DNA of 64,000 bases, from assembly GCA_018175075.1 (NCBI GenBank), contig GCA_018175075.1_4100.1. One strand, given 5' to 3'. The notes below the pieces were generated by a model, which worked only from the letters and a program-made list of their open reading frames with translations, was not told the DNA's origin and ran no database searches. Positions 19,454-34,271 of the stretch are shown here, one piece after another. Made by a program: the position numbers and the translations under genes. This stretch comes from a phage. Each line of letters starts with the position of its first letter. The stretch's first letter is position 1.

Positions 19454-20116
19454 ATGATGAAATCAAAATTAGGTTTGTTTTATAAAAACTATTTTGTTAA
19501 ACAACGTAAATTTATAAAAAAATATTTCTCTGGCGAGAAGTCTAGTCCTATAATCTTTAAAAGACCAAGTTATAATACTTACTTAGCTGGTGCTAAACAG
19601 TCTAAGAAATTTATTACTCTTTTACATAAAAACAAAATTAAAGCTTCTTATGTTGAAACGAGAAGAAACTCATCAATAACTCCTGGTGATTTTATTGAGT
19701 ACGGATGTTTCAATATTAAGTACAATGATAATACATACTTTATGGATATTGATTGTAATACATCCAATCTTTTTAACATTGTAGTAAATCCATTAAAACA
19801 ATATAATGTTTATGGTGATTCTATTATCAAATTAATCAAAAACAAAGATAGCTTTGATTTTGAAATAAATGTTTTAGATGATAATTTTGACGAAGTACCA
19901 GTAAACCCTGAAATCTGTGATATTTTAAACAGTTTAAAAGGTAGTACCTACACTATATCATCTGATTTAATGTTTCAGTACTCATTAATCCATAAAGATA
20001 TTGAAAAGTATATTGAATGCTCCAAAATTTTGAATTATCTTTACGATGAATTTAAAAAGAGTTCTAAAATAACCGCATACACTTTGTACAATATTCCTAA
20101 AATGGTGAATCTTTGA
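19454..20116 (+). CDS. hypothetical protein, basic N-terminus
   Basis: 220 aa; AAGGAG SD; last + strand gene, converges on the - strand array. Confidence 0.6.
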   Translation: MMKSKLGLFYKNYFVKQRKFIKKYFSGEKSSPIIFKRPSYNTYLAGAKQSKKFITLLHKNKIKASYVETRRNSSITPGDFIEYGCFNIKYNDNTYFMDIDCNTSNLFNIVVNPLKQYNVYGDSIIKLIKNKDSFDFEINVLDDNFDEVPVNPEICDILNSLKGSTYTISSDLMFQYSLIHKDIEKYIECSKILNYLYDEFKKSSKITAYTLYNIPKMVNL

Positions 20117-20993
20117 CAAATACAGTACTGGCAACTCCACCGTCTGTAACATATTGTCCAGTACTGTAAATTTGTATACCATCGGTTAAGTAAGTTCTGT
20201 ATAAAGTTGCTGTAACATATACGTTATTCATATTCATCTCTATTGGTAGTACACATTTGGTATAGGCTGAGACATCTGTTTGTGTACCTATACCTAATTG
20301 ACCTGCGTTATCGCCTGTGTTATAACCAGTTGCGTAAACACCTAATGAAGTTATAATATGATTAGAAAAATATGAATAACCCACACTGCTTCTTATTATA
20401 TCACCTGGTGCTTGTGTTGTTTGTCTTAACGAAATATATGTTTGTGATGTAGAACCATTTGCTAACTGACCAAAGTATTGTCCACCACCATGATATGCAA
20501 ATAATTTATTACTACTATTATTACTTGCTATAGCAAAAGCGAAGTAACTTGAGTTTGTTGTATAATCTTTCACCGTATAGGTATTAGTTATTTGAGAACA
20601 TAACGTGTACTTTGAATATAACGTCATGTCGGTTGTACCTACGCCTGATATTGCACCAGTATAATACAATCTCCCATCGGTTCCAATAAATCCTTGCATA
20701 AGAAAATTTGCCAGTATTTTGGATGGTGTTACTCCAGTAGGTACTGTTCCTTGTACAAATGATGAAAGTGAATCGGTACTTCTACCATTTCCCAGTTGTC
20801 CATAACTACCATAACCCGTATTCCATATCGTGTTGTCTGTACATAATACGCTTAATGCACCTGCACTAACTGCAATTTGTTTTATTGTTTTTCCAAGTGC
20901 TGTTATCCTATCAAACACTATCTTTGCAGAAGCCCACGTTGTTGACTTATCAGTTGATAAACCGAATGATGCACCATTTCCAGCATACCACAT
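20097..20993 (-). CDS. RCC1-like repeat protein, C-terminal part of a frameshifted gene
   Basis: GYGSYGQLGNG, DNAGQLGIGT; frame stays open upstream of the listed Met to about 21058. Confidence 0.7.
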   Translation of the reverse strand: MWYAGNGASFGLSTDKSTTWASAKIVFDRITALGKTIKQIAVSAGALSVLCTDNTIWNTGYGSYGQLGNGRSTDSLSSFVQGTVPTGVTPSKILANFLMQGFIGTDGRLYYTGAISGVGTTDMTLYSKYTLCSQITNTYTVKDYTTNSSYFAFAIASNNSSNKLFAYHGGGQYFGQLANGSTSQTYISLRQTTQAPGDIIRSSVGYSYFSNHIITSLGVYATGYNTGDNAGQLGIGTQTDVSAYTKCVLPIEMNMNNVYVTATLYRTYLTDGIQIYSTGQYVTDGGVASTVFVKDSPF

Positions 20994-21024
20994 CGTATTA
21001 TCTTTCTTTTTAATTAATGTTGAC

Positions 21025-21249
21025 TCATACCCGAACCCATAGATCTTCTACGTTTGTATTGCACAAAACCCATTTGGTTTGTGTTATAATATTACCTATA
21101 CCCATTTGCCCAAACTCTTGAGAGCCTCTACTGTACAACGTACCATCTGACATAAGGGCAAAAACTGTTGTATCAGATGAAGCTATTTTTGTAACAGAAG
21201 GTTGTATGTTCTTTTTTGATGATGTGATAATTCTTCCAAAGGGTAGCAT
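21025..21249 (-). CDS. RCC1-like repeat protein, N-terminal fragment (MLPF leader)
   Basis: GGAGG SD; MLPFGRIITS...QEFGQMGIGN; ends EDLWVRV* where paralogs continue. Confidence 0.65.
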   Translation of the reverse strand: MLPFGRIITSSKKNIQPSVTKIASSDTTVFALMSDGTLYSRGSQEFGQMGIGNIITQTKWVLCNTNVEDLWVRV

Positions 21250-21320
21250 TGTATCCTCCAAATGTAAATCGTTATTATATTTAGGACAAAAAAATGCCAG
21301 TACAAAATACTGGCTTTATT
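21250..21320 (-). promoter_or_regulatory. RCC1-array cassette (diverged copy)
   Basis: GCCAGTAT-TTT-GTACTGGC hairpin, TATAAT, GGAGG SD. Confidence 0.5.
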
Positions 21321-22526
21321 TTATATACCACGACTGGGTATTTTATATAATTGAAATTTAGTGTAATAATCAGAAACTGTTGTACCTGTCGCTTGTGGGA
21401 TATAGCCACTCAAATACACATCCCCTTGATTATCCATATACACATTTGTACATTCACTTGGACAGAATAACTCGATGCTGCCAACTTTAGGTGCATCAAC
21501 TGGAACTACAAATGTAGTACTTGATGTTGTATTACCGCGACCGAGCCTACCATATGTGTTTATACCACACATATAAAGTGAATTGTTAGTTTTAACCGTA
21601 AGACCACCATATGTTAATGAATTTGATTTCATTATCATATCATCTGATATTGGTAGAGTGGAGATTGTAGATAATACTGTCCCTGATGAAGCGGCTGAAC
21701 CATTACCCAAGTTACCTTCCGATTGAATCCCACTTGCACGAACTGTATATGTATTATTCGTGTTGTGTTTAGATACAACCCATGATGCACTCCCACCAAG
21801 TTCATAATGTATAACAGTATTGTTGGCTAATGCACCCATTTGTGTCCATACTCTAATGTTAGTTTCACCATTACTTATACCAAGTGAACCCCATGTGTTT
21901 TGACCAGTTACCCAAAGTGTTTTATCAATTTTCTGCACAATCACTGCACTTGAACCTGTTTTTACACTATCCACATTCGTATTAATTGAAGTAAATGTTG
22001 ATAATCTTGTGGTTGTGTTATTACCAAAATATCCCTGTGTATTTGCCCCCATTCCATATAGCGTACCATTTTGAAGTAAAACAAAAATACCCTCCCCTAC
22101 AATTTGAATGTCCTTAATTTGCGACAATTGTGTTGCATTGAATACTGATGTAAAATATGAAGTACAATCAGTATAAGTACTGACAGTACTTAATCCTGCA
22201 CCAATAGCTCTACCTACGCCACTGTAATAAAATTTATTATCTTCGGTTTGGATTAAATTAAAAGAACCTTGGGCTGTTCTAAAACGTTTTACATTTTGGT
22301 ATATTAAAGTCCACTCTTTTACTTTCGCATTAGGTACACCATTTCCGAATCCATAGTTTTGTGAACTAGTTCCACCTATACCCATTAAGTCTCCATTTTT
22401 ATATAATAGTAAGAGTGCTGTTGCTGGAATAACTGACGCACTATAACCATTGTAAATAAAGATTTCTTTCACTTCAGGAACTTTCATTTTATTTGCGTAT
22501 TTTATCATCCTTGGAAAAGGTAACAT
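21321..22526 (-). CDS. RCC1-like beta-propeller protein with MLPF leader
   Basis: MLPFPRMIKYAN; NTWGSLGISNG, GINTYGRLGRGN, QSEGNLGNGS. Confidence 0.8.
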   Translation of the reverse strand: MLPFPRMIKYANKMKVPEVKEIFIYNGYSASVIPATALLLLYKNGDLMGIGGTSSQNYGFGNGVPNAKVKEWTLIYQNVKRFRTAQGSFNLIQTEDNKFYYSGVGRAIGAGLSTVSTYTDCTSYFTSVFNATQLSQIKDIQIVGEGIFVLLQNGTLYGMGANTQGYFGNNTTTRLSTFTSINTNVDSVKTGSSAVIVQKIDKTLWVTGQNTWGSLGISNGETNIRVWTQMGALANNTVIHYELGGSASWVVSKHNTNNTYTVRASGIQSEGNLGNGSAASSGTVLSTISTLPISDDMIMKSNSLTYGGLTVKTNNSLYMCGINTYGRLGRGNTTSSTTFVVPVDAPKVGSIELFCPSECTNVYMDNQGDVYLSGYIPQATGTTVSDYYTKFQLYKIPSRGI

Positions 22527-22597
22527 AAAATCCTCCTTTATTCATTATACTATATTTAATCAAAAAGAAAAGCCAGTGTTAAGTACTGGCATAAAAT
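22527..22597 (-). promoter_or_regulatory. RCC1-array cassette: hairpin + promoter + SD
   Basis: mRNA sense GCCAGTACTTAACACTGGC...TTAAATATAGTATAATGAATAAAGGAGG. Confidence 0.6.
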
Positions 22598-23767
22598 CTA
22601 AGCAGAAGGCATATTCTTCATCTTAATAAATGAAAATTGTGTACCAGTATTTGTGGTTTGATCAGTAAAATATGAATTACTCCCAGCCCAGTACAATTCA
22701 TTATTGACTATACAATATATAACAGAACTCGAACTCTGTGAATACACACGACTTATATTTGATTGTTCTACTCCAGTACTGAACTGAACTACCCCCAACT
22801 GTGAACTTGGTATTACATTAGTTGGTCTACCTAAACCGTTAACACCCGCTCCACCACCACATGTATATACTCCAGTACTATCAGTTGATATATTAACATA
22901 ACCATTTCCGGCATTTTCAAATAGTATTTCACTGGGAACAACACCAAATCCTGTAAGATCTATTTTCCTGAATGTAGTGTAAACAGTAGAACCACCAACA
23001 CCTCTTCCACCATAATCATTAGAACCAGCCATATAGATACTATATCCAGAACTTCCTAAACATAATAACTGTACGTTGTCATATAAAATTTGCATAGATA
23101 TAACGTTATCAGGAATACTCAATACCGTAAAAGTAGTTAAAGAAGAACTTCCAATATTACTACCAACCGATGTTCCACATCTGTAGTACTTACCGCCTTT
23201 TATATAATGGAACGATGAACCGCCTAACTTATGTGCTCCTATTTCACTTACCCCAGTATCTATAAGAATGGGAGATACAACTTTGTTATTAACACCTAAC
23301 TCAGATCTACTGTTCATACCGAACCCATATAAACGACCATCTAACATCAATATTAGTGTACTACCTGACGTACCTGCTGACGTAAATTCTATATTCTTTA
23401 TTTGCGACACGTCAATACCTACAAATAATGAAGTTACTTCAGTCCAGTTAACATATGAACCACTAGCCCCAAAATATCCACCCATGTATAGTCCGGCACA
23501 ATATAACTTATTATCAACCGTCTTTATTAATGTACCGGATACACACGCCCAAAAATCATCAACTTCATAGGGTACATGTACCCAACCACCTAATACATCA
23601 CTATCATTCCCTGTTCCTAATTTGTAGTTCGATCCAGAACCACGCATATACATATTCCCTGTACTATAAAGTAATCCGACATGTAATTGACTACCATCCA
23701 ATTTCTTTATTTCGGGAAGAGTTGGTTTAATATTTCCGTACTTTAACATTCTTCCAAAAGGTAACAT
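22598..23767 (-). CDS. RCC1-like beta-propeller protein with MLPF leader
   Basis: start at MLPFGRMLKYGNI behind GGAGG; GSNYKLGTGND, NSRSELGVNN. Confidence 0.8.
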   Translation of the reverse strand: MLPFGRMLKYGNIKPTLPEIKKLDGSQLHVGLLYSTGNMYMRGSGSNYKLGTGNDSDVLGGWVHVPYEVDDFWACVSGTLIKTVDNKLYCAGLYMGGYFGASGSYVNWTEVTSLFVGIDVSQIKNIEFTSAGTSGSTLILMLDGRLYGFGMNSRSELGVNNKVVSPILIDTGVSEIGAHKLGGSSFHYIKGGKYYRCGTSVGSNIGSSSLTTFTVLSIPDNVISMQILYDNVQLLCLGSSGYSIYMAGSNDYGGRGVGGSTVYTTFRKIDLTGFGVVPSEILFENAGNGYVNISTDSTGVYTCGGGAGVNGLGRPTNVIPSSQLGVVQFSTGVEQSNISRVYSQSSSSVIYCIVNNELYWAGSNSYFTDQTTNTGTQFSFIKMKNMPSA

Positions 23768-23845
23768 AATTCCTCCTTTATTCATTATACTATATTTAAT
23801 ACAAATAAGAAAGCCAGTACAAAGTACTGGCATAGTTTTATAGTA
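23768..23845 (-). promoter_or_regulatory. RCC1-array cassette: hairpin + promoter + SD
   Basis: GCCAGTAC-TTT-GTACTGGC then TTAAATATAGTATAATGAATAAAGGAGG. Confidence 0.6.
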
Positions 23846-24955
23846 TTATTTCGGCATTGTAATTGCAGACCATGAGTTCGTGGTAATAGGACCTGGCACA
23901 TACAAAAAAGAACCACAAGCATAAATTTGATTATTACCATCAAATACTATACTAAAATGTGCACATGTGTATAATGCTGATTTTTCTGGGTTGTAATTAT
24001 CTAAAGTTAGTGTATTGGTGAATCTACTCAAACCACCACCAGAACCATTTCTACCAAATTCACCAGTACTGTATATCTTTCCTTCGGTTGTTGCGTACAT
24101 ATTAACATATGAAGTCGCACTTGATTTTGATATTTTATGTATCTTACTATCAATAGTAGTGGAGTTAAATGCAAATGGATATACTTGTGTGTTCGTTGTA
24201 ATACCGTTACCAAGTTGACCAATATACTGCCAACCTGCGTTGTATATATTGCTGGCTGAATAAGCAAGAGTACCAGTACTGTTACCACCAAATAGTTTAA
24301 CACTTGTTAACCTGCTTACTAGTGTAGTATACTGTCCGGGACTTACGCCAAGTGAACCATATCCACTGCTCCCGCAACCGAGAAGTTCATTATTTGATGT
24401 TAATATTAATGTGTTATTCTGTGTACCCAATATATCAAGGACTGTATTAGCTCCGGTATTAACAACTGAAACAAAAGTACTCTGAACCGTGGAATACCCA
24501 CCACCGAGTGAATAGTTACCATTCATGCCTCTACCATAAACAATCGAACCACTAGCATCAACGTAGTGCATTGTATCTGCACCAATTGATATCATTTTAA
24601 TATTAGATATATGTGGAAATGAAGAAGTAACATTCAAACCACCCAACGGAATCATAGTATTTCCTGTGCCTAATTGTGTGGTAACTCCATGCATTATGAA
24701 TTCTTCACCCTTGAGATAAAGAATATTGTACGCACCAGCCCATGCATCAGTAACACCTTCTGAAATTAATATCCAAGTATTTCTTGTTGCTGTATTTTCA
24801 ACGTTTAACTGCAAATACGTATTAACCCCACAACCATAAAGTGAGCCATCGCCATAGAGGACGTACAAATTATCAAGACCGCACAGAACTTTCTTTATCT
24901 TTGGAGCTTCAGGTGCAATATTTCCGTACTTAACCATTCTAGCAAAAGGTAACAT
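23846..24955 (-). CDS. RCC1-like beta-propeller protein with MLPF leader
   Basis: MLPFARMVKYGNI; SGYGSLGVS, QYIGQLGNGIT. Confidence 0.8.
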   Translation of the reverse strand: MLPFARMVKYGNIAPEAPKIKKVLCGLDNLYVLYGDGSLYGCGVNTYLQLNVENTATRNTWILISEGVTDAWAGAYNILYLKGEEFIMHGVTTQLGTGNTMIPLGGLNVTSSFPHISNIKMISIGADTMHYVDASGSIVYGRGMNGNYSLGGGYSTVQSTFVSVVNTGANTVLDILGTQNNTLILTSNNELLGCGSSGYGSLGVSPGQYTTLVSRLTSVKLFGGNSTGTLAYSASNIYNAGWQYIGQLGNGITTNTQVYPFAFNSTTIDSKIHKISKSSATSYVNMYATTEGKIYSTGEFGRNGSGGGLSRFTNTLTLDNYNPEKSALYTCAHFSIVFDGNNQIYACGSFLYVPGPITTNSWSAITMPK

Positions 24956-24965
24956 AAATTCCTCC

Positions 24966-25367
24966 TTAAATTTGTGGCAATTGGTATTCAGTTAAAGTCC
25001 ATGTACCAACAACTGTCCCTACTGGAGACATACCAGTGTAGTATAATTTCCCACTCACATATGCAAATAATGCATTGTCATTCGCAGCAACCAACGATGT
25101 TGACGGATCATAAACTACAGAATTTGGAAATTGTGCTTGGACGAAAATTGAAGCATTATTAGATGAATTGTTACCAAGCTGTCCATAATTATTATACCCT
25201 GTTCCAAAAATACGACTTCCATTTCTATATAATAATCCCCTAGGGTTTTGTGAATATGTTTGTATAAATTCAAAATCGGAAACATTAGTTAATTGTAAAT
25301 AAGTACTTTGTGGCGTTAAAGATATCTTATTAGTATTAGATAGAACACCATTTCCTAATTGTCCGTG
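24966..25367 (-). pseudogene. RCC1-like protein, displaced C-terminal 133 codons of the 25336..26145 gene
   Basis: stop-free frame, no usable ATG: HGQLGNGVLSNT...NNYGQLGNNSS...TLTEYQLPQI*. Confidence 0.65.
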
Positions 25368-26145
25368 AATTTTGTGACCCTACACCATATAGCGGATAAG
25401 TATTATCTACATTAAGAACTATACCCAACATATTGTTATATGAAATTATATCAACTGGGTACTGGCCTGTAGGAAAACTATACTTTGTCCAACTCGTCAA
25501 AGTATCAGTAGCAGAACCAGTTAACAATGTACCAGTACTAGTTTTACCACATCTCCATGCTGAATTATCATTTTTAATTATCCAAGTTGGACTATTGAAA
25601 AATGAACTAACCTTTTTAACATTAATATTAACCTGTGTAAATGATGTAAGTGTAGATGAACTACTACCCAACTCATAGGTTGAATTATCACCTATTGCGT
25701 AAAGAACACTATCATTTGTTAGTAAAAACATATTACGAACATTTGGATATATCTCCTTGATATTATCCACATTAAAACCTGAAAAATAAGACGTACAATC
25801 AACAAATGTAGTACTTTGAACTGCCCTAGATGTACCAGTCCAAAAGTTCCAACCTGCATAATAAAATTTATTATCATTGGTCTGAACTAAGCTATATGAA
25901 GCATTCCTTGTGCACCAAAAATTTTTCACATTTTGCATTAAGCGAACCCATTTGGTCTGTGTCGTTGTATTTCCAAGACCGAATATACCAGCATTGTTAC
26001 CGCCAATACCCCACAAATCACCGTTCTTATACAGAATCATCAATGTGTTGTTGGTAAAAGCCGATGGTGCTTGCATTTTAATTACATTAGATTCATATAC
26101 AGGTGCTATATTCCCGTACTTTAACATTCTCCCAAAAGGTAACAT
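25336..26145 (-). CDS. RCC1-like repeat protein with MLPF leader, truncated by frameshift
   Basis: MLPFGRMLKYGNI; NNAGIFGLGNT, DNSTYELGSSS; ends GVGSQNSRTIRKWCSI* inside a repeat motif. Confidence 0.75.
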   Translation of the reverse strand: MLPFGRMLKYGNIAPVYESNVIKMQAPSAFTNNTLMILYKNGDLWGIGGNNAGIFGLGNTTTQTKWVRLMQNVKNFWCTRNASYSLVQTNDNKFYYAGWNFWTGTSRAVQSTTFVDCTSYFSGFNVDNIKEIYPNVRNMFLLTNDSVLYAIGDNSTYELGSSSSTLTSFTQVNINVKKVSSFFNSPTWIIKNDNSAWRCGKTSTGTLLTGSATDTLTSWTKYSFPTGQYPVDIISYNNMLGIVLNVDNTYPLYGVGSQNSRTIRKWCSI

Positions 26146-26153
26146 ATTCCCTC

Positions 26154-27329
26154 CTATTCCGGTAAAATCATTTTCTTCATTTTAACTTGTTGTGTACCTG
26201 GACTCTGTTCCTGAAACATAGACCCGTTACCACACCAGTACACCTCATTAGTACCCACTAACGCGTATAACACACCAGAACCACCTTGTACTGAAAATGC
26301 ATTAACATCTGGTGCAACATCCATATCCTCATATTGTACCTGGTGGTAATAAGATCTTTCTGATGCAGTAGTAACAGGCCAACCAAGAGGAACACCACTA
26401 CCACATGTATAAAGTTTACCATTCTGTGTCATTGCCATTATAAAATAATTCAAACTGTGATTGTTCATCGACCCAGCATCTGGTATAATACCACTAATTG
26501 CAGGAGTGGTACTAAATGGACTCATGATAATAGTAGTGTCGCCATACCCTATTCCTAAACAATAATCAGTGTTTTTTCCAGCAGTATATACATTAATCTT
26601 ATTTCTATTGGATGTAAGTACTGAAGTGGTTTCAGGAGTACATGAAATACCAATAACTGTTCCAGATATATCAGTACTTACTGTAAATGTGGATAGTTTA
26701 GATGAACTTGAACCTAGGTTATAACTTGCATTATTACCACATCTGTAATATTGTCCATTTTTTACAAAATGGAAAGCACCACCCGACTGTGTTCCTGCGA
26801 TTAAAGTAACACCCGTGTTAATCAAAATAGGTGTTGATTTTATTCCAGTAACACCCAATTCACCCCCAGCATTACGGCCTATCCCATATAAGTTACCATC
26901 ACTTAACAGAATTAACAAAGAACCATTGGATGCGGTAGTTTCGGTAGAAGCTATATCTTGAACTGTAGTAAGGCTTGGAATTGTAGACAATATAGATGTA
27001 ATATTAGTCCATCCGGGAACAGGTGATGCAGATACACCGACATAGTTCATTTGCCCTGCTAAGTAAAATTCTCCGTCAGTCGTAAGTATAATTGTCCCTG
27101 CGAATAAACACCAAACATTAGAAACTTTATATGGACACTGTACCCACCCATTTTGTACATACTCCGTACTATTATTTCCTAGCCTATAATGTGCACCACT
27201 TCCACGTAGATATAAGTTACCACTATCAAATAACATACCCATATGTGATGACGATGTACTAATCTTTAATACACCAGAAGGTGCAGGTTTAATATTTCCA
27301 TACTTAACCATTCTTGCAAAAGGTAACAT
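26154..27329 (-). CDS. RCC1-like beta-propeller protein with MLPF leader
   Basis: start at MLPFARMVKYGNI; GAHYRLGNNS, RNAGGELGVTG. Confidence 0.8.
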   Translation of the reverse strand: MLPFARMVKYGNIKPAPSGVLKISTSSSHMGMLFDSGNLYLRGSGAHYRLGNNSTEYVQNGWVQCPYKVSNVWCLFAGTIILTTDGEFYLAGQMNYVGVSASPVPGWTNITSILSTIPSLTTVQDIASTETTASNGSLLILLSDGNLYGIGRNAGGELGVTGIKSTPILINTGVTLIAGTQSGGAFHFVKNGQYYRCGNNASYNLGSSSSKLSTFTVSTDISGTVIGISCTPETTSVLTSNRNKINVYTAGKNTDYCLGIGYGDTTIIMSPFSTTPAISGIIPDAGSMNNHSLNYFIMAMTQNGKLYTCGSGVPLGWPVTTASERSYYHQVQYEDMDVAPDVNAFSVQGGSGVLYALVGTNEVYWCGNGSMFQEQSPGTQQVKMKKMILPE

Positions 27330-27399
27330 ATTTCCTCCTTTATTCATTATACTATATTTAATCAAAAAGAAAAGCCAGTACTCTGTACTGGCCTATATT
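27330..27399 (-). promoter_or_regulatory. RCC1-array cassette: hairpin + promoter + SD
   Basis: same ~70-bp cassette. Confidence 0.6.
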
Positions 27400-28137
27400 T
27401 TAGACTGAATTGTTAGGATAATATCTCCCACGTCCCCATATTATTCGCACAGCACCACCACCAGCAGCCGTATAAGAAAAATTATCCCATATACTACCAC
27501 CACCACCATACATCTTACCAGCACCACCACTACCAGCACCACCATTATATGAACCATCGTATCTACCGCCAATACCATTAGCACCTTGAACAATGATACC
27601 AGTACCACCACCCGTACCAATGAACGAGGTATTATAGAATGCACCACCACCACCGCCGCCGCCAGCACCATTTTCACCAGTGATTGCATCTCCGTTACCA
27701 CCTTTACCAGTGTAGCCACCAGCACCACCACCAATGACTGCACCACCACTTACACCAGCGTTGCCCCCATTACCACCACCATCATTAATAGCGTTAGCAG
27801 CTTTCCCACCTAGTCCACCAACCCTATATTCACCAGTGAAGCTAACACATAGTTTTTCAGTTCCACGATATAAACCGTTTTCAACTGCTGTAGTAGTGTT
27901 GGGATGTGTAAGAGAAACACTTAAGTACTCACCACTAGTAACCGGAATATTATTACGCCACGATAAGCCGCCACCAGCACCACGTTGACCACCCGGCGAA
28001 ATAACACATACTGATATTTCGGTAACGCCAGCAGGAACTGTAAATTGTGTTGTTCCTATTGTCGTGATTAATTGTTCACCATGTGGCTTATATTCAATTT
28101 TATTCCCGTACTTAACCATTCTTCCAAAAGGTAACAT
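27400..28137 (-). CDS. glycine-rich (Gly_rich-type) protein with the same MLPF leader
   Basis: MLPFGRMVKYGN; FTVPAGVTEISVCVISPGGQRGAGGG then GGxGG tracts; no RCC1 motifs. Confidence 0.75.
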   Translation of the reverse strand: MLPFGRMVKYGNKIEYKPHGEQLITTIGTTQFTVPAGVTEISVCVISPGGQRGAGGGLSWRNNIPVTSGEYLSVSLTHPNTTTAVENGLYRGTEKLCVSFTGEYRVGGLGGKAANAINDGGGNGGNAGVSGGAVIGGGAGGYTGKGGNGDAITGENGAGGGGGGGAFYNTSFIGTGGGTGIIVQGANGIGGRYDGSYNGGAGSGGAGKMYGGGGSIWDNFSYTAAGGGAVRIIWGRGRYYPNNSV

Positions 28138-28210
28138 AATTCCCTCCTTTATTCATTATAATATATTTAATACAAAAAAGAAAAGCCAGTACTCTGTACT
28201 GGCTTTTACA
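28138..28210 (-). promoter_or_regulatory. RCC1-array cassette: hairpin + promoter + SD
   Basis: same ~70-bp cassette. Confidence 0.6.
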
Positions 28211-29401
28211 TTACAATTGTCTAGGTGTATCCAGTACATATCTATTTGTACGAGGACCACCATCATCATGCGTTCCGGTTGAATATATATTTTTCATATC
28301 AGCAGTTAGGAAAGTACGATACGAACCGCGATATATTTTAATTTTATCATACATAGAATATGTTATTCCTGACGGCAATGGACATGCAGTAAATTTACCA
28401 ATGGTAACATTAGAACCAACACCTAATGTACCAGCATAACCACTCGCATTTAAACCAGTTGCATATACACCTGTACTCGTAACTAGTATACTAGATTGTG
28501 ATGCATATCCAGTATGGATTGAATAATAAGTTCCTGATGGTAATGTAGTACTATTATTCCCTAATACTGCTAGTGCTGTACTATTCGTAGTGTTATTACC
28601 CCATGCCCCATTATTAGCTAATCCACCAACTAGAAACTGACGTGCTCCTGTATTTGGATTCTCCACTAAAGCACTGACAGCACCAAATGAACAAACAGTA
28701 TATTGTAATGTTTTTGTATATGTGGTACTTGGCTTATACAAAGTATATTCATTAAATGGTGTCCATGTGGTACTAGTACTTATGCCAGATGTACTACCAC
28801 CAATATATAAATTATTTTGTGTATCAAAAAACATTGCACAGTAATTTGTTGACTGTATTTGTGCAATATCTACATCTGGTGTTACCGCTTTAACAAATGA
28901 ACCATCTGATATTTGATAAGTAGTTCCTGTACCATCTGCGAATTGTCTAGCACTATTCCACCCTGTACTCCATATTGTATTATTATCCATTAAGAAAGTA
29001 AACCACGTAGTACCTGCATACATCTGTTTAATTGAAGTACTTGAACTTTGTGTGTACAAATTTTCAATATATTGGTTATAACTTAAAAATGATGTAGTAC
29101 TAGTTTCTAAACCAATATGACTACCATATCCACAATAAAAATAATTTAAGTCATTATCTTGTACTAACAAAGTTCCTTGTGTCATCCAGCAATCTTTGAC
29201 ATTTTCTCTAATTAATGTCCACGACCTTACTGCATTATTATTTCCTCTACCAAACTTCCCATAACTATTACTGCCTCGTGCGTATAGTTGACCGTCGGTA
29301 TAAAGTACAACAACCTCAGTATCAGTTGGTATTATTTTCTTAATTTGTAGTGGTACAGGCACAATATTCCCATAATTCATCATTCTTGCAAAAGGTAACA
29401 T
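28211..29401 (-). CDS. RCC1-like beta-propeller protein with MLPF leader
   Basis: MLPFARMMNYGNI; SNSYGKFGRGNN, GYAGTLGVGS. Confidence 0.8.
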   Translation of the reverse strand: MLPFARMMNYGNIVPVPLQIKKIIPTDTEVVVLYTDGQLYARGSNSYGKFGRGNNNAVRSWTLIRENVKDCWMTQGTLLVQDNDLNYFYCGYGSHIGLETSTTSFLSYNQYIENLYTQSSSTSIKQMYAGTTWFTFLMDNNTIWSTGWNSARQFADGTGTTYQISDGSFVKAVTPDVDIAQIQSTNYCAMFFDTQNNLYIGGSTSGISTSTTWTPFNEYTLYKPSTTYTKTLQYTVCSFGAVSALVENPNTGARQFLVGGLANNGAWGNNTTNSTALAVLGNNSTTLPSGTYYSIHTGYASQSSILVTSTGVYATGLNASGYAGTLGVGSNVTIGKFTACPLPSGITYSMYDKIKIYRGSYRTFLTADMKNIYSTGTHDDGGPRTNRYVLDTPRQL

Positions 29402-29472
29402 AATTCCCCTCCTTATTCATTATACTATATTTAATACAAATAAGAAAGCCAGTATCAAGTACTGGCCTATAT
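29402..29472 (-). promoter_or_regulatory. RCC1-array cassette: hairpin + promoter + SD
   Basis: same ~70-bp cassette. Confidence 0.6.
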
Positions 29473-30642
29473 TTAAACTGGCGAATCTAATATAAATTCT
29501 AAACTACTAATGCCACCATATGTGACATCTGTTCCCGTGCTATATACAAAATTACCATCAGTTATATAAGTTCGGTTATAACTACCTGCCATCTGTGACT
29601 TACTATAATCAAACCCATCAGGTACGATTGCTTTGGTATATACTAATGCATTAGTAGATGTACCAATACCTAACATACCAGCTTGTGTAGATTGATTGTA
29701 GCCGCAACAATATATACCATCTGTTGTAGCAATAACTTGGTTATAATATGAAGTATTGTTAGCAATGCTTACTACATCACCAGGTGGCATTAGTGATGCT
29801 GTTTGTACCTCAAATGCTCTATAATCTTTGAGAGAACCATCTTTCCCATCTGCTTGTGCACCAAATATTCTTGAACCACCATTTGCGATGATAGTTTTAC
29901 CAGTGGGATCAGTGCCTATTGCCATTGCCATTGAAGTACCATTATTCACATAGTACTTTATATTAATTGTATTACTTAAGCTGGTAGGAGCACCATAATA
30001 TATATTATATAACTTACTTCCTGAACTTGTAACTGCATTGACTCTTCCTGTATAAAATAACCATCCTTGGTTTGTAACATAACCGTGCATTAAATTACTT
30101 GCAAACAATTTAACAGGTAATTGATTTGCTGCGGTAGGAACAGTACTTTTGACGAATCTACCAGAAACATGGTTAATTGTTGTCCCATCACCCAACTGAC
30201 CATCCGACCCTACTCCAGTACTCCATATTGTTTGGTCTGATAGTAACACACTTGTAGTCTGATAACTAACGGCTATATCTAATATTGGTAATGTTAATGT
30301 ATTGAATATAGGCATAGCAGATGTCCATATTGATACTCCTGACCCTTTCATACCAACAGTTGTTGAACTTCCACTGTACCATATTTCATTATTGCTTTTC
30401 TTAACAACTATCGACGTGGCACCCATCCAAAAATCTTCAACACCAGAAGTACTAAAAGTCCATGTAGTAACAGTATTTTTGTGACCTAAACCCAAAATAC
30501 CATATGCATTATCACCACGCACATATAAATCACCACTGTTTGTTAAAACAGCAACATTATAGTTGTTAGCAAGTATTTTTTTAATATTTGGTTTATCAGG
30601 TGCAATATTCCCGTACTTAAACATCCTCGCAAAAGGTAACAT
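29473..30642 (-). CDS. RCC1-like beta-propeller protein with MLPF leader
   Basis: MLPFARMFKYGNI; DNAYGILGLGH, GSDGQLGDGT, TQAGMLGIGT. Confidence 0.8.
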   Translation of the reverse strand: MLPFARMFKYGNIAPDKPNIKKILANNYNVAVLTNSGDLYVRGDNAYGILGLGHKNTVTTWTFSTSGVEDFWMGATSIVVKKSNNEIWYSGSSTTVGMKGSGVSIWTSAMPIFNTLTLPILDIAVSYQTTSVLLSDQTIWSTGVGSDGQLGDGTTINHVSGRFVKSTVPTAANQLPVKLFASNLMHGYVTNQGWLFYTGRVNAVTSSGSKLYNIYYGAPTSLSNTINIKYYVNNGTSMAMAIGTDPTGKTIIANGGSRIFGAQADGKDGSLKDYRAFEVQTASLMPPGDVVSIANNTSYYNQVIATTDGIYCCGYNQSTQAGMLGIGTSTNALVYTKAIVPDGFDYSKSQMAGSYNRTYITDGNFVYSTGTDVTYGGISSLEFILDSPV

Positions 30643-30711
30643 ATTTCCTCCTTATTCATTATACTATATTTAATACAAATAAGAATGCCAGTATCAAGTA
30701 CTGGCATTATG
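30643..30711 (-). promoter_or_regulatory. RCC1-array cassette: hairpin + promoter + SD
   Basis: same ~70-bp cassette. Confidence 0.6.
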
Positions 30712-31821
30712 TTATTTTGGTAAATCAATTTTAGTAAAGACTGCAACATCTGCACTTGCACCTGGAATGGCGTAATACGATCCAGTACTATATACATTCC
30801 CGTCTTTGGTTAATAATGATGTTAATCCGTCACTAAAAGCAACATCACTAATCTCACTAACTTCTACAGGTAATTGTAAATTAGCAGCACTATAGATAGC
30901 ACCCGTTTGAGAATTGTTTAATCCCAAACCACGGTTTCCCCCAATACCTTTCTGATATGCACTAGTTAATATAATTTGCGTAGCCGTGCTTGTTGCCTCT
31001 GAATTTGTCATAAACAAAGGTGAATTATTAGGTAAAGTACTTACAGGAACTGCTTTGAATGTAGTTGAATCTGAACTAAGAAAGTTTGGAGTTGTACCAC
31101 ATGTGAAATATGATGTACCATTATAGTAATTGAGTGTATGTCCACCAATAGCTGCATCTATTACACCAGAACTACGCAGTCCCCAAATGTTAACTTGTGT
31201 TCTGTTCCCTGTGCCATGTAATCCACGGTCATTCCACCCTGAACTATATAACTTATTATCTATGCTAATATACATACTATCATTAGGAGTAGACATAACT
31301 TTACGCACATTAGAAGCACATAGTGTTAATGTATATATTGATGAAGAACCAATCCCCAATACACCACGGTATCCATTAGCCCCAGCACCATAGAGTACTG
31401 AACTTGAACTTAGTACAAATATTACACCACTATTGCATACAATATTAGCAATTTGATTCACTGGTATTGTATTTGTAAACCACTCGGTTCTATCAACTAA
31501 TGTAGTACTGTAAGAAGTAGTTGTAGAAGATGTGAACCAGTACGTTTGACCTGATGTCCATATCGTATTATCATTTTTAATAATAACAAGTGTTCGTCCT
31601 CCAGTGAAAAAATTAGAAACATCTGCACTTACTAATATCCATGAAGATACCGTGTTGGTATTACCATTTCCAGATTCACCACCTTGATTTCTGCCTATGT
31701 AATACAATTCATGTGAATCAGTCAATACGAATTGACCTTGAGTAGAAGCACCAACTTTAATTATATTTTTAGGACCAGAGGTAATATTCCCATAATCAAA
31801 TAGTCTTACAAAAGGTAACAT
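30712..31821 (-). CDS. RCC1-like beta-propeller protein with MLPF leader
   Basis: start at MLPFVRLFDYGNI behind GGAGGG; RNQGGESGNGNT, NGYRGVLGIGS. Confidence 0.8.
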   Translation of the reverse strand: MLPFVRLFDYGNITSGPKNIIKVGASTQGQFVLTDSHELYYIGRNQGGESGNGNTNTVSSWILVSADVSNFFTGGRTLVIIKNDNTIWTSGQTYWFTSSTTTSYSTTLVDRTEWFTNTIPVNQIANIVCNSGVIFVLSSSSVLYGAGANGYRGVLGIGSSSIYTLTLCASNVRKVMSTPNDSMYISIDNKLYSSGWNDRGLHGTGNRTQVNIWGLRSSGVIDAAIGGHTLNYYNGTSYFTCGTTPNFLSSDSTTFKAVPVSTLPNNSPLFMTNSEATSTATQIILTSAYQKGIGGNRGLGLNNSQTGAIYSAANLQLPVEVSEISDVAFSDGLTSLLTKDGNVYSTGSYYAIPGASADVAVFTKIDLPK

Positions 31822-31829
31822 ATTCCCTC

Positions 31830-33032
31830 CTATTGTTGCCATAACTGCGTTGGCATTAATGTTAGTGTAGTAATACTATAAGTGCCATCAGGCAATCTAC
31901 CACCATTACCATTCCAGCCACCACATGCATATAATTTATAATCTTTAGTAATTATTATGGTTCTGCTCCAATCTTTAGATGCCATAAGAACATTGTCATA
32001 ACCACCACTTATTGCACTAAGATTAAAAATAGCCCAAGTCTTAACTAATGTATTAGTTCCATTACCTTCTTGACCATATGAGTTAGGACCACTACTTCTA
32101 ACATATGGTGCGTATTGTGCCATAGGTGAACCAATTGATGCATTTCCCATATTACTTGGACAAATAAAATTACTGTACTTACTTACATCAACCGTGACCG
32201 ATGTATTCCTAATTGGTGTTAGCTGATTTACTGATGTAGTCGTACCATTACCAGCTTGTCCAGTATTGTTAGACCCACTATAATATACAGGCCCACCAGT
32301 AGTAAACCACCAAGTAACATTGTATGTAGTACTAATATGTTCTACATTACTAATCACGAATTTGTTCAAATATACAACAGAACTACCACCACATCCACTT
32401 TCACCAAAGTTATCCTTACCACAAAACCATGCATCTTTATTTGATTTAATATAGTGCGTTCCTTGTAATGAACATGCCATATCTATAACTTCACCCATAT
32501 TAGTCATAACTGTTAGTGTAGGGATTGAATTTTGATTACCCGACCCACATTCACCATTAGTATTTTTTCCACACGCAATTACTCTACCATCTGTTAATAA
32601 TATTCTAGTACTTTCACCTATATATACACTCTTGATCATATTAGCCATTACGCCAATTTTATTAAATGAAGCAGTAACATCAGTCCATGTTCTCAAATAA
32701 CCACTAACAGGTGTTGCATCTCCATAATCAGAAAATGCACCCACCGACCCAGTGTAGTATATTTTATTATCCAAATCAACCATCAATGAACCATGAACAC
32801 CCAGCCAATAGGCTGCACAGTTACGTGCAAGTACAGTAAATGACGGAACTGCTGCTGAATTCCCAAGACCAAATTGAGACATGTTATTACTACCATAACC
32901 ATATAAAGTATTAGTTGGGCTATGTAGATACATACAGTTTGTATAATGTTGTTGTAAAACATCTGAGAACTCTATAGGTTCTGGCCCTGGTGCAATATTA
33001 CCGTACTTAACCATTCTAGCAAAAGGTAACAT
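31830..33032 (-). CDS. RCC1-like beta-propeller protein with MLPF leader
   Basis: MLPFARMVKYGNI; NNMSQFGLGN, NNTGQAGNGT, NSYGQEGNGT. Confidence 0.8.
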   Translation of the reverse strand: MLPFARMVKYGNIAPGPEPIEFSDVLQQHYTNCMYLHSPTNTLYGYGSNNMSQFGLGNSAAVPSFTVLARNCAAYWLGVHGSLMVDLDNKIYYTGSVGAFSDYGDATPVSGYLRTWTDVTASFNKIGVMANMIKSVYIGESTRILLTDGRVIACGKNTNGECGSGNQNSIPTLTVMTNMGEVIDMACSLQGTHYIKSNKDAWFCGKDNFGESGCGGSSVVYLNKFVISNVEHISTTYNVTWWFTTGGPVYYSGSNNTGQAGNGTTTSVNQLTPIRNTSVTVDVSKYSNFICPSNMGNASIGSPMAQYAPYVRSSGPNSYGQEGNGTNTLVKTWAIFNLSAISGGYDNVLMASKDWSRTIIITKDYKLYACGGWNGNGGRLPDGTYSITTLTLMPTQLWQQ

Positions 33033-33104
33033 ATTTCCCTCCTTTATTCATTATATTATATTTAATCAAAAATAAAAGCCAGTACTTGAGTACTGGCATA
33101 TCAA
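33033..33104 (-). promoter_or_regulatory. RCC1-array cassette: hairpin + promoter + SD
   Basis: same ~70-bp cassette. Confidence 0.6.
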
Positions 33105-34271
33105 TTACGAAAAACGTGGATCATCAAGAACAAACACGGTACTACTTGGACCACCTTGTGTGGTGACAGCACTAGTACTGTAAAGAAAGTTACCATCTGT
33201 CATATAAGTTCTACGATTCGTACAAATAACTCTTACTTTATTCATATCGATATCAGGATTAGGTAATGGACATGAAGTATACACTGATACATCAGTACTT
33301 GTTCCTATTCCCAGCGTACCTTCATTTGTGGTTGAACCGCTATTCAACCCACTAGCATATATACCACTGCTTGTAATAACAAAAGTGGCGTAGAATGGAG
33401 AACCTTCACCTATATTTAATTTAGTTCCAGGTGGTTGTCTTGCCGCAGCAACCGCACCATATGCTTTCCCACCAGATGTGGCAAGATTACCAAGAGCACC
33501 ATACTGTTGTTGTCCACCATTATACACTGTGTTAGTGCCATCACTGTTAGTGTGGATACCAATAGAATTATAGTTACTGTTGCTATATACTAAAGCGGCA
33601 TTAGAAGTAACTGTATTTCGTGTATATACTTTATATTGTTGGGTAAAATTACCACTAGTGGACGTACCCTGTACAGTTCCAGTGTAGTATATATATCCGT
33701 CTGTACCAATGAATGAGTGCATAACACTACCTGCAAAAATTTTTTCTGGAGTAACACCTGACGGTATTGTTGATTGTACAAATCTACCCACTACATTTGT
33801 TGTTGTATTATTTCCCAATTGACCGGAGTCACCATAACCACTTGACCATATGGTATTGTTCTCAAGAAGAACACTAATTGATAATCTTGATAAAGCTATT
33901 TCTTTAACATCACTTTCTAATGTATCAAAAAATGAAGTACAATTTGTCCAAGTGTTCACTACGCTAGAACTAACACCAATTTGTTTATTATCACCAGAAC
34001 TATAATAATTCCCATCATATGTTTGTATAAGTATAACAGAACCACCAACCCATACTTTATCAACTGAACCAAACGTTCTTGTCCATGTGGTAACTATATC
34101 CCCGCTATTATTACCCAATCCAAAGCAACCACTACTATCTACGCCTCGTACATATAAATCTCCTGAAGTCATCAGAACTGCACAGAATGATTGTGCACCT
34201 TTAACATCTTTAATTGGCTCTGGTTCAGGTGCAACATTTCCATAATCAAACATTCTAACAAAAGGTAACAT
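33105..34271 (-). CDS. RCC1-like beta-propeller protein with MLPF leader
   Basis: start at MLPFVRMFDYGNV; DSSGCFGLGNN, GDSGQLGNNT, NEGTLGIGT. Confidence 0.8.
   Translation of the reverse strand: MLPFVRMFDYGNVAPEPEPIKDVKGAQSFCAVLMTSGDLYVRGVDSSGCFGLGNNSGDIVTTWTRTFGSVDKVWVGGSVILIQTYDGNYYSSGDNKQIGVSSSVVNTWTNCTSFFDTLESDVKEIALSRLSISVLLENNTIWSSGYGDSGQLGNNTTTNVVGRFVQSTIPSGVTPEKIFAGSVMHSFIGTDGYIYYTGTVQGTSTSGNFTQQYKVYTRNTVTSNAALVYSNSNYNSIGIHTNSDGTNTVYNGGQQQYGALGNLATSGGKAYGAVAAARQPPGTKLNIGEGSPFYATFVITSSGIYASGLNSGSTTNEGTLGIGTSTDVSVYTSCPLPNPDIDMNKVRVICTNRRTYMTDGNFLYSTSAVTTQGGPSSTVFVLDDPRFS

Follow-up and report, generated by a model that had tools for sequence, protein, structure and literature searches.

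As shown by the open reading frames, twelve tandem, consecutive genes occupy positions 20097 to 34271 on the minus strand of the window (the whole stretch of 64,000 nucleotides that was analysed), and the 13-residue leader with which eleven of them begin is conserved at the protein level, across genera and across folds. We put the probability at about 60% that this leader is a short N-terminal tag by which interchangeable ligand-binding modules dock to the virion, the modules being probably displayed on the surface of the particle and possibly on hair-like fibres. The array belongs to the jumbo myophage genome of an Asteriusvirus-type jumbo coliphage (121Q/PBECO4/phAPEC6 group). Its extent agrees with that given in the first-pass annotation, and the genes are as follows.

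33105-34271 (-), gene 1: leader MLPFVRMFDYGNV, linker and RCC1-like propeller, 388 aa (open reading frame, leader, Pfam PF25390/RCC1)
31830-33032 (-), gene 2: leader MLPFARMVKYGNI and RCC1-like propeller, 400 aa (PF25390 at 1.9e-22; RCC1 repeat above the gathering score)
30712-31821 (-), gene 3: leader MLPFVRLFDYGNI and RCC1-like propeller, 369 aa, without upstream cassette, overlap with the end of gene 2 (open reading frame, leader, Pfam)
29473-30642 (-), gene 4: leader MLPFARMFKYGNI and predicted seven-bladed RCC1-like propeller, 389 aa (AlphaFold, Foldseek)
28211-29401 (-), gene 5: leader MLPFARMMNYGNI and RCC1-like propeller, 396 aa (open reading frame, leader, Pfam)
27400-28137 (-), gene 6: leader MLPFGRMVKYGNK and glycine-rich non-propeller domain, 245 aa (no Pfam match; phrog_4474 in PHROGs; AlphaFold)
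26154-27329 (-), gene 7: leader MLPFARMVKYGNI and RCC1-like propeller, 391 aa (PF25390 at 1.6e-31)
24968-26145 (-), gene 8: leader MLPFGRMLKYGNI and frame-broken RCC1-like propeller, without upstream cassette (same break in phAPEC6 gp007 and in UB)
23846-24955 (-), gene 9: leader MLPFARMVKYGNI and RCC1-like propeller, 369 aa, without upstream cassette (open reading frame, leader, Pfam)
22598-23767 (-), gene 10: leader MLPFGRMLKYGNI and RCC1-like propeller, 389 aa (open reading frame, leader, Pfam)
21321-22526 (-), gene 11: leader MLPFPRMIKYANK and RCC1-like propeller, 401 aa (open reading frame, leader, Pfam, PHROGs)
20097-21249 (-), gene 12: variant leader MLPFGRIITSSKK and split RCC1-like propeller (Pfam; split also annotated in phage UB)

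Two of the genes are interrupted by one-base frame breaks. In gene 8 the break lies near 25368, leaving an open reading frame of 269 aa (25336-26145) with the remainder open in another frame; in gene 12 it lies near 21030, and the frame at 20097-20993 represents the 3' part. Both breaks recur in the independent isolates phAPEC6 and UB and are therefore not sequencing errors.

That eleven of the genes are RCC1-like, as first supposed, was borne out by Pfam, by a PDB profile search in which the array propellers matched RPGR (E 4.7e-41), and by AlphaFold/Foldseek, which together predicted a seven-bladed propeller fold for these eleven. The gene 4 model (pLDDT 89, pTM 0.87) was closest to UVR8 (TM 0.75), followed by RCC1, RPGR and HERC2. 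For gene 6 (pLDDT 92.5) the best Foldseek match was the cyanophage Pam3 fibre (probability 0.97, TM only 0.29), with the Bxb1 tail tip also found, and the modelled domain resembles phage fibre tips. In both models the leader is predicted to sit outside the fold: residues 1-10 had pLDDT 49 in gene 4 and 45 in gene 6, and their low-confidence conformation differed, with a helix at residues 4-11 in one model and short strands in the other. Two other features reported earlier were also present, the proline-rich linker APxxPxIKK in most genes and the C-terminus YSTG..GG..[FY][VI].D.P in the four genes starting at 33105, 29473, 28211 and 20097. The array proteins contain 42-51% S/T/N/G/Q and 5-8% K+R, with pI 4.9-9.3, a composition that is adhesin-like rather than DNA-binding.

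The eleven leaders conform to MLPF[AGVP]R[ML][VLFMI][KDN]Y[GA]N[IVK]. The motif given in the first-pass annotation held overall, the departures being R-L (gene 3), Y-A-N (gene 11) and K as residue 13 (genes 6 and 11). It had been ascribed to all twelve paralogs, whereas the frame-split gene 12 starts at 21249 with a second leader type (MLPFGRIITSS), which is near the MLPFPIISNT leaders of Eneladusvirus and XbC2. A degenerate DNA pattern of the leader gave 11 matches in the window against 0 expected from 100 shuffles. Pairwise identity in the window was 78% over leader residues 1-13 versus 29% over the remainder of the proteins, with K, D or N at position 9 and linkers of differing sequence. 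Among 91 distinct leader proteins from nine genomes, M1, P3 and F4 were invariant, and Y10, G11 and N12 were conserved at 90%, 84% and 88%. The same residues were written with freely varying codons (P: CCA45/CCT36/CCG9/CCC1; Y: TAC43/TAT39; G: GGG33/GGA29/GGT9/GGC5); the synonymous variation already seen beneath the leader was confirmed and became much stronger with relatives added.

The leader forms a module separate from the propeller. Across eight related genomes it precedes at least four Pfam-distinct families (RCC1, Kelch, LamG/ConA-like and Gly-rich) as well as unassigned domains. The window and seven related genomes yielded 82 leader proteins, 52 of them RCC1-like, 8 Kelch, 7 Laminin_G_3 and 2 Gly_rich_2, the others being unassigned. 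LamG, Kelch and the PF21722/Pam3-fibre-like Gly-rich domain are of types commonly used for binding or at fibre tips. Homologues of gene 6 carry PF21722 Gly_rich_2, and those Gly-rich homologues that lie outside the clade begin MLEML or MIELL, not MLPF. In orthologous arrays of other genera the leader is conserved. The leader was contained in 61 phage records; in a scan of IMG/VR it occurred, besides two chance matches, on jumbo contigs only (109-378 kb), and a library of 1.84 billion representatives gave at least 81 clusters of leader plus RCC1 that were mutually less than 50% identical.

Published virion mass-spectrometry data were available for relatives of the window phage. Absence from virions and infected cells had been named at the outset as evidence against the docking-tag proposal; orthologues are present in virions of both phAPEC6 and CBB. 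The phAPEC6 paper discusses eleven RCC1-like proteins, eight of which are in the structural proteome (gp003, 005, 006, 007, 009, 010, 549 and 551), with low coverage of 1-5 peptides (PMC7247149). Five of the virion-detected phAPEC6 proteins are 79-99.5% orthologues of window genes: gp003 of gene 4 (79% identity), gp006 of gene 7 (87%), gp009 of gene 9 (99.5%), gp010 of gene 10 (98%) and the 30-kDa gp007 of gene 8, with the same frame break. The CBB virion proteins CBB_536, 537, 548, 549, 551, 552 and 553 (PMC5259590) are leader-bearing without exception, some with 35-51% coverage, and four of the six structural proteins present in CBB and absent from the hairless GAP32 are leader proteins (PMC5259590). 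In fENko-Kae01, CDS_517, 518, 525 and 526 were detected by mass spectrometry; CDS_525, the orthologue of gene 6, gave 17 spectra and the RCC1 proteins 2-3, from a preparation that also held non-structural proteins. Kelch, LamG and Gly-rich leader proteins were likewise among the virion proteins of CBB and fENko-Kae01.

Most array genes are preceded by an intergenic cassette, as listed here.

34282-34303 (-): promoter-like box GTAAATATGATATAATGAATAA upstream of gene 1
33044-33097 (-): cassette of terminator hairpin GCCAGTAC..GTACTGGC, T-run, TTAAATATAATATAATGAATAA box and Shine-Dalgarno site
30652-30708 (-): cassette, hairpin and TAAATA/TATAAT box
29413-29468 (-): cassette, hairpin and TAAATA/TATAAT box
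28149-28207 (-): cassette, hairpin and TAAATA/TATAAT box
27340-27394 (-): cassette, hairpin and TAAATA/TATAAT box
23778-23831 (-): cassette, hairpin and TAAATA/TATAAT box
22538-22590 (-): cassette, hairpin and TAAATA/TATAAT box
21262-21314 (-): hairpin and variant box CCTAAATATAATAACG upstream of gene 12

A TAAATA box about 30 nt upstream was found in all nine array genes with an intergenic region, compared with 3 of 137 control ORFs. The same TAAATA core precedes the capsid, scaffold and baseplate genes of phAPEC6. However, the array box has T/G/C before TAAATA where the phAPEC6 structural-gene box has A, and in the array a perfect TATAAT then follows; assignment to the late promoter class is therefore putative only, and the box is a putative late-type expression signal.

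We propose that the locus is a late-type island that would encode twelve low-copy virion proteins of uniform layout. Each would start with the 13-residue peptide M-[LI]-P-F-x-R-h-h-x-Y-G-N-h, where h is hydrophobic, followed by a linker of 3-8 residues, often proline-rich, and by one compact ligand-binding domain, which here is a seven-bladed RCC1-like propeller in eleven genes and a glycine-rich domain of fibre-tip type in one. The peptide would serve as an address tag and not as part of the fold, most likely becoming ordered only upon non-covalent binding to a single type of acceptor site, shared by all paralogues, on the particle during assembly. The paralogues would then be in competition for these sites, and any one virion may show mixed binding specificities. 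We infer this common site, the retention of the tag, the mixed display, the external location and the adhesin role. The location is most likely external, on hair-like fibres or at decoration sites of the capsid or sheath, such as have been described for phAPEC6, 121Q, fEgEco12 and CBB; phages of this group are hairy, and CBB hairs terminate in tiny globular structures (PMC5259590). The modules may be accessory adhesins that recognise, for instance, glycans or flagella, and not DNA-condensing proteins. Flagella are the receptor for relatives (PMC11218385) and, as cited in PMC11895373, for SHEFM2K. Duplication, divergence and recombination at the terminator-promoter-leader junctions, which are repeated along the array, probably account for its diversification. 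Leader matches were looked for in the hairy phages Y3 and Atu_ph07 of other lineages and none was found, so hairs do not depend on the leader family.

It is rather unlikely that the peptide acts as a capsid-targeting sequence of the kind found on T4 internal proteins, directing the modules to the prohead core and the inside of the head (inner body), perhaps for ejection as effectors. The genetic logic of T4, a short common N-terminal tag on hypervariable cargo genes, would fit, as would the presence in virions. PhAPEC6 contains an inner body and encodes a T4 gp21-like prohead protease, and its authors favoured an inner-body role (PMC7247149). Position 9 in CBB is often Glu after L/I-x, resembling the (L/I)xE motif; in the window, however, neither the leaders nor the sequence after them offer a conserved Glu or any other candidate for cleavage. 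The cargos here are low-charge binding domains of lectin and propeller type, unlike the T4 internal proteins with their small size and basic character. The low spectral abundance per paralogue in phAPEC6, the fibre-tip likeness of the Gly-rich member and the share of leader proteins among those specific to the hairy CBB also argue against an internal location.

There is a slim chance that the peptide is recognised by a non-virion factor (a dedicated chaperone, a modifying enzyme, or a degradation or regulatory system) and that virion detection is incidental or secondary. The low RCC1 coverage and the one preparation that was not highly purified are consistent with this, and a search for the docking partner of the leader found none. 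Against it stand the detection of leader proteins in three independent proteomes from three genera, the coverage reached by some CBB members and the late-type box of the array genes. By its sequence, moreover, the leader has no hydrophobic core of the secretion-signal type.

The RCC1-like array is already known: annotation exists in about 40 genomes, the label in use is "DNA condensation proteins", and the phAPEC6 paper treats the array. The first-pass remark that no described phage system of this build was known is overstated as regards the array, while the shared tag across different folds appears to be new. A string search of the literature, with incomplete coverage, gave no mention of it. 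That the genes encode DNA or chromosome condensation factors, the leader being merely the N-terminus of the family, is scarcely credible, although the proteins resemble eukaryotic RCC1 in sequence and fold and the annotation appears in several papers as well as in GenBank and PHROGs. As a scaffold the RCC1-like propeller is generic, and its best structural matches, UVR8, RPGR and HERC2, are not DNA binders; the array proteins are not basic; and the Kelch, LamG and Gly-rich domains under the same leader are unconnected to DNA. Bacteria are not known to possess Ran, with which RCC1 partners. Since the peptide heads unrelated folds and most likely fixes them to the particle, the usual label is probably wrong.

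A nucleic-acid effect on the first 39 bases, through gene conversion among cassettes or an RNA element acting in regulation or translation initiation, and with no function of the peptide, is very improbable: the first 12 bases are invariant within the window, the upstream 45-75 bases are near-identical in eight window genes and repeats favour recombination, but residues are fixed across genera while their codons vary (four for Pro, four for Gly, two for Tyr), and the leader persists both in the three window genes without an upstream cassette and in phages with different intergenic cassettes.

ORF listing and six-frame motif searches confirmed twelve tandem minus-strand genes at 20097-34271, an array bordered on either side by plus-strand genes. 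The first-pass annotation gave all twelve a common 13-residue N-terminal leader. Eleven of them start with MLPF[AGVP]R[ML]xxY[GA]N and the twelfth starts otherwise; gene 12, which is interrupted by a one-base frame break, begins at 21249 with MLPFGRIITSSKK. A degenerate DNA pattern for the leader peptide had 11 matches in the window and none in 100 shuffles. Pairwise identity within the window was 78% over leader residues 1-13 and 29% over the remainder of the proteins. The Pro-rich linker behind the leader (APxxPxIKK) and a subfamily of four genes with a common C-terminus, both described earlier, were recovered from the window by motif searches and ORF listing, respectively. We conclude that the leader array is real and far from random.

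The region matched Asteriusvirus jumbo coliphages (121Q, PBECO4, UB, JP4, phAPEC6, G17 and others) at 88-98% nucleotide identity. The similarity was patchy, with at most 38% of the 14.3-kb region covered in one place by any single record. The matching records carry the annotations 'regulator of chromosome condensation', 'putative DNA condensation protein' or 'hypothetical protein'. Two array genes are broken in frame:

Near 25368, minus strand: one-base frame break in CAAAATTCAC, within gene 8 (24968-26145); the downstream frame is open.
Near 21030, minus strand: one-base frame break by an extra C, within gene 12 (20097-21249); the downstream frame is open.

Identical breaks were seen in phAPEC6, 121Q and UB. 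Because both recur in independent isolates (phAPEC6 gp007; UB), they are real genome features. A counterpart of the 269-aa product of the broken gene 8 was found in phAPEC6 virions (PMC7247149). The two genes could be recent pseudogenes, encode truncated products or contain recoding sites.

Searches with the leader by tblastn located it at 498 places in 61 phage records. Asteriusvirus coliphages carry 5-15 copies each. It was also present in Salmonella phages Munch, 7t3 and SE_PL, in Klebsiella phage fENko-Kae01, in Erwinia, Serratia and Yersinia jumbo phages, and in GAP32, CBB and Xanthomonas phage XbC2. RaK2-like Klebsiella phages gave no leader match by tblastn, although they have core virion genes in common with the clade. 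In a degenerate-DNA scan of IMG/VR the leader occurred only on jumbo contigs (109-378 kb), besides two chance matches. A profile of the window N-termini returned 279 matches among 1.84 billion representative proteins, and 91 of the best 149 of these begin with the leader. As 81 of these 91 are full-length (350-400 aa) and mutually less than 50% identical, the family is very diverse. Only three short fragments were returned when 40-aa N-termini were compared with a database of 5.8 billion proteins, and the leader had no match among PDB sequences. A second variant, MLPFPIISNT, was found in Eneladusvirus and XbC2, and the start of window gene 12 is similar to it.

Across 91 distinct leader proteins, M1, P3 and F4 never vary, and conservation is 84-90% at Y10, G11 and N12. 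The codons beneath these residues vary freely: four are used for Pro (45/36/9/1), four for Gly (33/29/9/5) and two for Tyr (43/39). With varied codons under fixed residues, neither gene conversion nor an RNA element can be the main cause of leader conservation. The domains behind the leader also differ. Nine CBB genes start with MLPF[SPAT][RI]..Y[GA]N, and their products are Kelch propellers, Laminin_G_3 (ConA-like) domains or unassigned domains of ~220 aa. Pfam was run on 82 leader proteins, taken from the window and from seven related genomes: 52 were RCC1-like, 8 Kelch, 7 Laminin_G_3 and 2 Gly_rich_2, the rest being without assignment. Our main result is that the leader is a protein-level module, independent of the propellers. 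This comparative evidence gives good support to the core idea of the first-pass annotation, a single short address used by many modules.

Eleven of the twelve array genes had been described as RCC1-like propellers, and the profiles agree, gene 6 being the exception. We looked for ~50-residue repeated blades with the G-x-N-x-x-G-Q-L-G signature, using RCC1, RCC1_2 and RLD profiles, and such repeats were found in all 11 propeller genes. PF25390 matched each of them (E 1e-9 to 1e-31), every match lying below the strict full-domain cutoff of the model (150 bits), and RCC1 or RCC1_2 repeats passed the gathering score in most but not all. A PDB search with the family profile returned RPGR (4.7e-41), HERC1/2, UVR8 and RCC1 (3e-19). 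For gene 4 (29473-30642), AlphaFold predicted a seven-bladed propeller (pLDDT 89, pTM 0.87), which Foldseek placed nearest to UVR8 (TM 0.75, E 7e-20), followed by RPGR, HERC2 and RCC1. The likeness to RCC1, UVR8, RPGR and HERC2 lies in the seven blades and the repeat signature. The phage proteins differ from them in having ~15% identity, a single domain, a virion tag and no Ran or chromatin context. The first-pass annotation had proposed an analysis of selection along the propeller surface. As a proxy, substitutions among four orthologues were compared between strands and loops; the contrast was weak (26% against 37% variable positions) and we give it no weight.

Gene 6 (27400-28137) was modelled with a pLDDT of 92.5. 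Its nearest structural neighbours were the cyanophage Pam3 tail fibre (probability 0.97, TM only 0.29) and a Bxb1 tail-tip protein. It had no Pfam match at E 0.01, while many of its homologues (E 1e-8 to 1e-17) carry PF21722 (Gly_rich_2), which two leader-bearing relatives also match. By sequence it is related to the widespread phage 'glycine-rich domain' proteins of this family, and those outside the clade begin with MLEML.. or MIELL.. where the clade has MLPF. Gene 6 looks like the tag grafted onto a pre-existing Gly-rich domain. In PVP-SE1 the Gly-rich homologue is a single gene amid replication genes, and no comparable array was found in that genome. Gly-rich proteins elsewhere (PVP-SE1 gp19; ~150-kb contigs labelled Plesiomonas and E. 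coli) have a conserved N-terminus of their own, M[LIF]E[ML][LM]..., which may be a different address peptide of other phage lineages.

In both models the globular domain begins at residue 17-20. Residues 1-10 had a pLDDT of 49 in gene 4 and 45 in gene 6, and the first strand of gene 4 runs from residue 20, at the 'IKKI' of the linker motif. Variable residues recur at every fourth position of the leader (5, 9 and 13). A two-turn amphipathic helix capped by the conserved P3 and G11-N12 is conceivable, and F4/R6/M7/Y10 would be its conserved face; this arrangement fits only one of the two low-confidence predictions. Two other roles for the leader were discarded. It is not a 'velcro' strand of the propeller, as it lies outside both predicted folds and also heads non-propeller domains, and it is not a Sec or Tat signal peptide, as it has no hydrophobic core.

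Eight array genes follow a nearly identical cassette, in which a G+C-rich hairpin (GCCAGTAC-loop-GTACTGGC) and a T-run lead to the box TTAAATATAGTATAATGAATAA, and this in turn to a strong Shine-Dalgarno site and the ATG. Upstream of gene 12 are a hairpin and a variant box, and three genes that abut the preceding gene (starts 31821, 26145 and 24955) keep the leader without the cassette. TAAATA is rare in the window, with 23 copies on both strands (128 kb, 65% A+T). The minus strand has 14 of these, and nine are ~30 nt upstream of an array gene; they precede 9 of the 9 array genes that have an intergenic region, compared with 3 of 137 control ORFs. The array genes of CBB, GAP32, Munch, XbC2, Hallingskeid and pEa_SNUABM_12 also have an upstream TAAATA box. 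The same core stands before structural genes of phAPEC6, among them those for capsid, scaffold and baseplate, and that genome has an annotated gp55-like late sigma factor. T4-type late genes would be marked by an upstream promoter box of the TATAAATA type and by the lack of a -35 element. Because the base before the core differs between the array box and the structural-gene box, we call the array box a late-like signal rather than a proven late promoter. A sigma-70 promoter scan gave matches no more frequently than in shuffled sequence. The rarity of TAAATA and its clustering upstream of array genes suggest that late-promoter-like boxes are counter-selected elsewhere in this early-gene region.

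The cassettes resemble the PeSL (promoter-early stem-loop) cassettes of T4-type phages, in which a repeated stem-loop and promoter flank single genes in hyperplastic regions and can bring about shuffling. PeSLs differ in having early promoters and in flanking unrelated small ORFs, whereas the array has the late-like box and its repeat runs into the coding leader. The terminator hairpins between 21296 and 33097 keep a GTAC...GTAC core while loops and outer stem vary. Salmonella phage Munch and Erwinia phage Hallingskeid have this core as well, and CBB, GAP32 and XbC2 have another conserved hairpin, CGACTTAGGTCG. Such conservation exceeds the needs of a terminator; the hairpin could be recognized by a protein or an RNase, or it could be a recombination cassette.

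Published proteomes of relatives indicate, through orthologues, that array-type leader proteins are virion proteins. Table 1 of the phAPEC6 study lists gp003, 005, 006, 007, 009, 010, 549 and 551, under the names 'DNA condensation protein' or 'hypothetical', among 62 structural proteins (PMC7247149). By BLASTP, gp003, 006, 007, 009 and 010 are 79-99.5% orthologues of window genes 4, 7, 8, 9 and 10. CBB_536, 537, 548, 549, 551, 552 and 553 were found in CBB virions at 9.5-51% coverage (PMC5259590), and all seven bear the leader. In a less pure preparation of fENko-Kae01, the Gly-rich orthologue had 17 spectra and three RCC1 members had 2-3 each. Low spectral counts per paralogue weakly fit many paralogues sharing limited sites. 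The supplementary files examined for the JP4 virion proteome listed no RCC entries. In the search for a docking partner, no internal repeats that could act as serial docking sites were found in phAPEC6 gp245, a baseplate-cluster protein of 3,323 aa. The abundant virion proteins gp210 and gp211 occur in 74 of 74 clade records, and since these include the leader-less RaK2-like phages, phyletic pattern does not discriminate either as the partner.

Hair-like fibres have been described on the tails of phAPEC6, 121Q, fEgEco12 and CBB, and also on the capsids of phAPEC6 and 121Q. In CBB the hairs measure 119 nm, 'including tiny terminal globular structures' (PMC5259590). With a domain that starts 17-20 residues from the N-terminus and almost no stalk, each module must sit directly on its acceptor. 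The array proteins have low charge and are rich in S/T/N/G/Q. LamG, Kelch, RCC1-like and Gly-rich fibre-tip-like folds are binding scaffolds. The flagellum is the receptor of the relative fENko-Kae01 (PMC11218385) and, as cited in PMC11895373, of the relative SHEFM2K. Leader-array genes are where closely related phages differ most. Taken together, the hairs, the short stalk, the composition, the fold types, the flagellar receptor and the gene variability favour the view that the modules are externally displayed accessory adhesins.

The docking site, the location of the modules and the retention of the tag belong to a mechanism that we infer. In its specific form, the leader would be a 13-residue 'plug', a universal docking tag by which this clade of jumbo phages places a stochastic, combinatorial mix of at least a dozen unrelated lectin- or propeller-type modules on the same acceptor sites of hair-like capsid and tail appendages; we give this a probability of roughly 0.35. 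Each virion would then have a different adhesin coat, and any compact domain set behind the cassette could bring a new specificity.

The main rival takes its logic from phage T4, where a capsid-targeting sequence (CTS) of ~10 residues determines incorporation into the particle. Like the CTS of IPI/II/III and Alt, the leader is a short N-terminal peptide common to diverse cargo, that is, to otherwise unrelated, fast-evolving proteins of a plastic locus. By this analogy the modules would form an inner body or be ejected, as the phAPEC6 authors guessed (PMC7247149). However, the T4 CTS is removed at the gp21 protease site, (L/I)xE, with which it ends, and the leader has neither a conserved Glu nor a conserved cleavage site. 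Up to residue 25 the window proteins have no conserved Glu, and position 9 is K, D or N; some CBB leaders carry L/I-x-E at positions 7-9. The nature of the domains also speaks against an internal role, as T4 CTS cargos are small, basic and internal and the array proteins are low-charge binding domains of 22-43 kDa. So does the link of leader proteins to CBB-specific structural proteins: four of the six structural proteins of hairy CBB that are absent from GAP32 are detected leader proteins (PMC5259590). We consider capsid targeting unlikely. Apart from the name of the fold, nothing supports the annotated 'DNA condensation' function. K+R of 5-8% and a pI of 4.9-9.3 show no consistent basic character, Kelch, LamG and Gly-rich proteins occur in leader arrays too, and Ran, the GTPase partner of the RCC1 type, is to our knowledge absent from bacteria.

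Several systems offer analogies for the external display that we favour. In adenovirus, the FNPVYPY motif of the fibre tail docks on the penton base, and the fibre is a trimer with a long shaft, of one or two types per virus. Both systems may use a short conserved N-terminal motif to fix receptor-binding proteins of varied distal domains to one acceptor, but the array has at least 12 monomer-sized, almost stalkless modules and no sequence similarity to the fibre. Phages with multiple receptor-binding proteins (CBA120 TSP1-4, G7C, K1-5/SP6 and the related jumbo phages RaK2, K64-1 and phiKp24 with branched fibres) likewise combine a conserved N-terminal attachment element with exchangeable distal domains, giving broad or flexible host binding. 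Their anchors are folded domains of at least ~100 residues on trimeric spikes, in contrast to the 13-residue leader, and no folded anchor of T4 gp10-like or T7 gp17-like type was found in the two modelled array proteins. The leader thus has neither the protease site that defines a CTS nor the folded anchor that defines anchor-domain proteins. By analogy, it resembles the CTS and the adenovirus fibre tail in logic and the multi-receptor anchor domains in purpose. T4 Hoc, with its Ig-like domains, may be comparable as a non-essential surface display of generic binding domains with possible weak glycan or surface adhesion, although Hoc is one protein that has a capsid-binding domain of its own and the array is a paralogue family with a short common tag. 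The dockerin-cohesin pairs of cellulosomes would be similar in principle, with one small docking element, many functional modules and repeated acceptor sites. The dockerin differs in being a C-terminal folded Ca2+-binding domain of ~70 residues, bacterial and extracellular, and is unrelated to the leader in sequence.

Both the array and its association with virions have been published before, and the cross-fold, cross-genus tag is apparently new as far as our searches reach; the leader peptide strings were not found in the literature searched, the coverage of which is incomplete. If the adhesin reading is true, hundreds of jumbo-phage entries named 'regulator of chromosome condensation' or 'DNA condensation protein', which PHROGs place under nucleotide metabolism, would become virion-borne binding modules. 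The tag would provide a testable handle on what the hairs of 'hairy' jumbo phages (121Q, phAPEC6, CBB) carry and would bear on first cell contact by these phages, some of which are flagellum-dependent. It would also represent an unusually minimal modular virion assembly, a linear motif replacing an anchor domain, and mixed display would place many specificities on one particle. A tag of 13-20 residues that loads arbitrary domains could serve as a display tool and for host-range engineering on jumbo-phage surfaces.

A scan of the 64-kb window detected no tRNA genes. Three features adjoin the array:

16972-19411, plus strand: seven tandem paralogous genes for small (104-141 aa) multi-pass membrane proteins, converging on the array.
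19454-20116, plus strand: 220-aa ORF (phrog_34359), with a convergent 20-base overlap with the 3' end of the last array gene.
34374-38765, plus strand: ~20 back-to-back ORFs of 60-80 aa, divergent from the array.

The 220-aa ORF had no Pfam match. The ORFs of 34374-38765 look like typical small early genes. Four of the seven membrane paralogues have basic C-termini. A similar tandem block of small genes adjoins the leader array in CBB, XbC2, Munch, fENko-Kae01, Hallingskeid and pEa_SNUABM_12, and is annotated as membrane proteins in CBB and pEa_SNUABM_12. It is possible that the membrane-protein block and the leader array are functionally linked.
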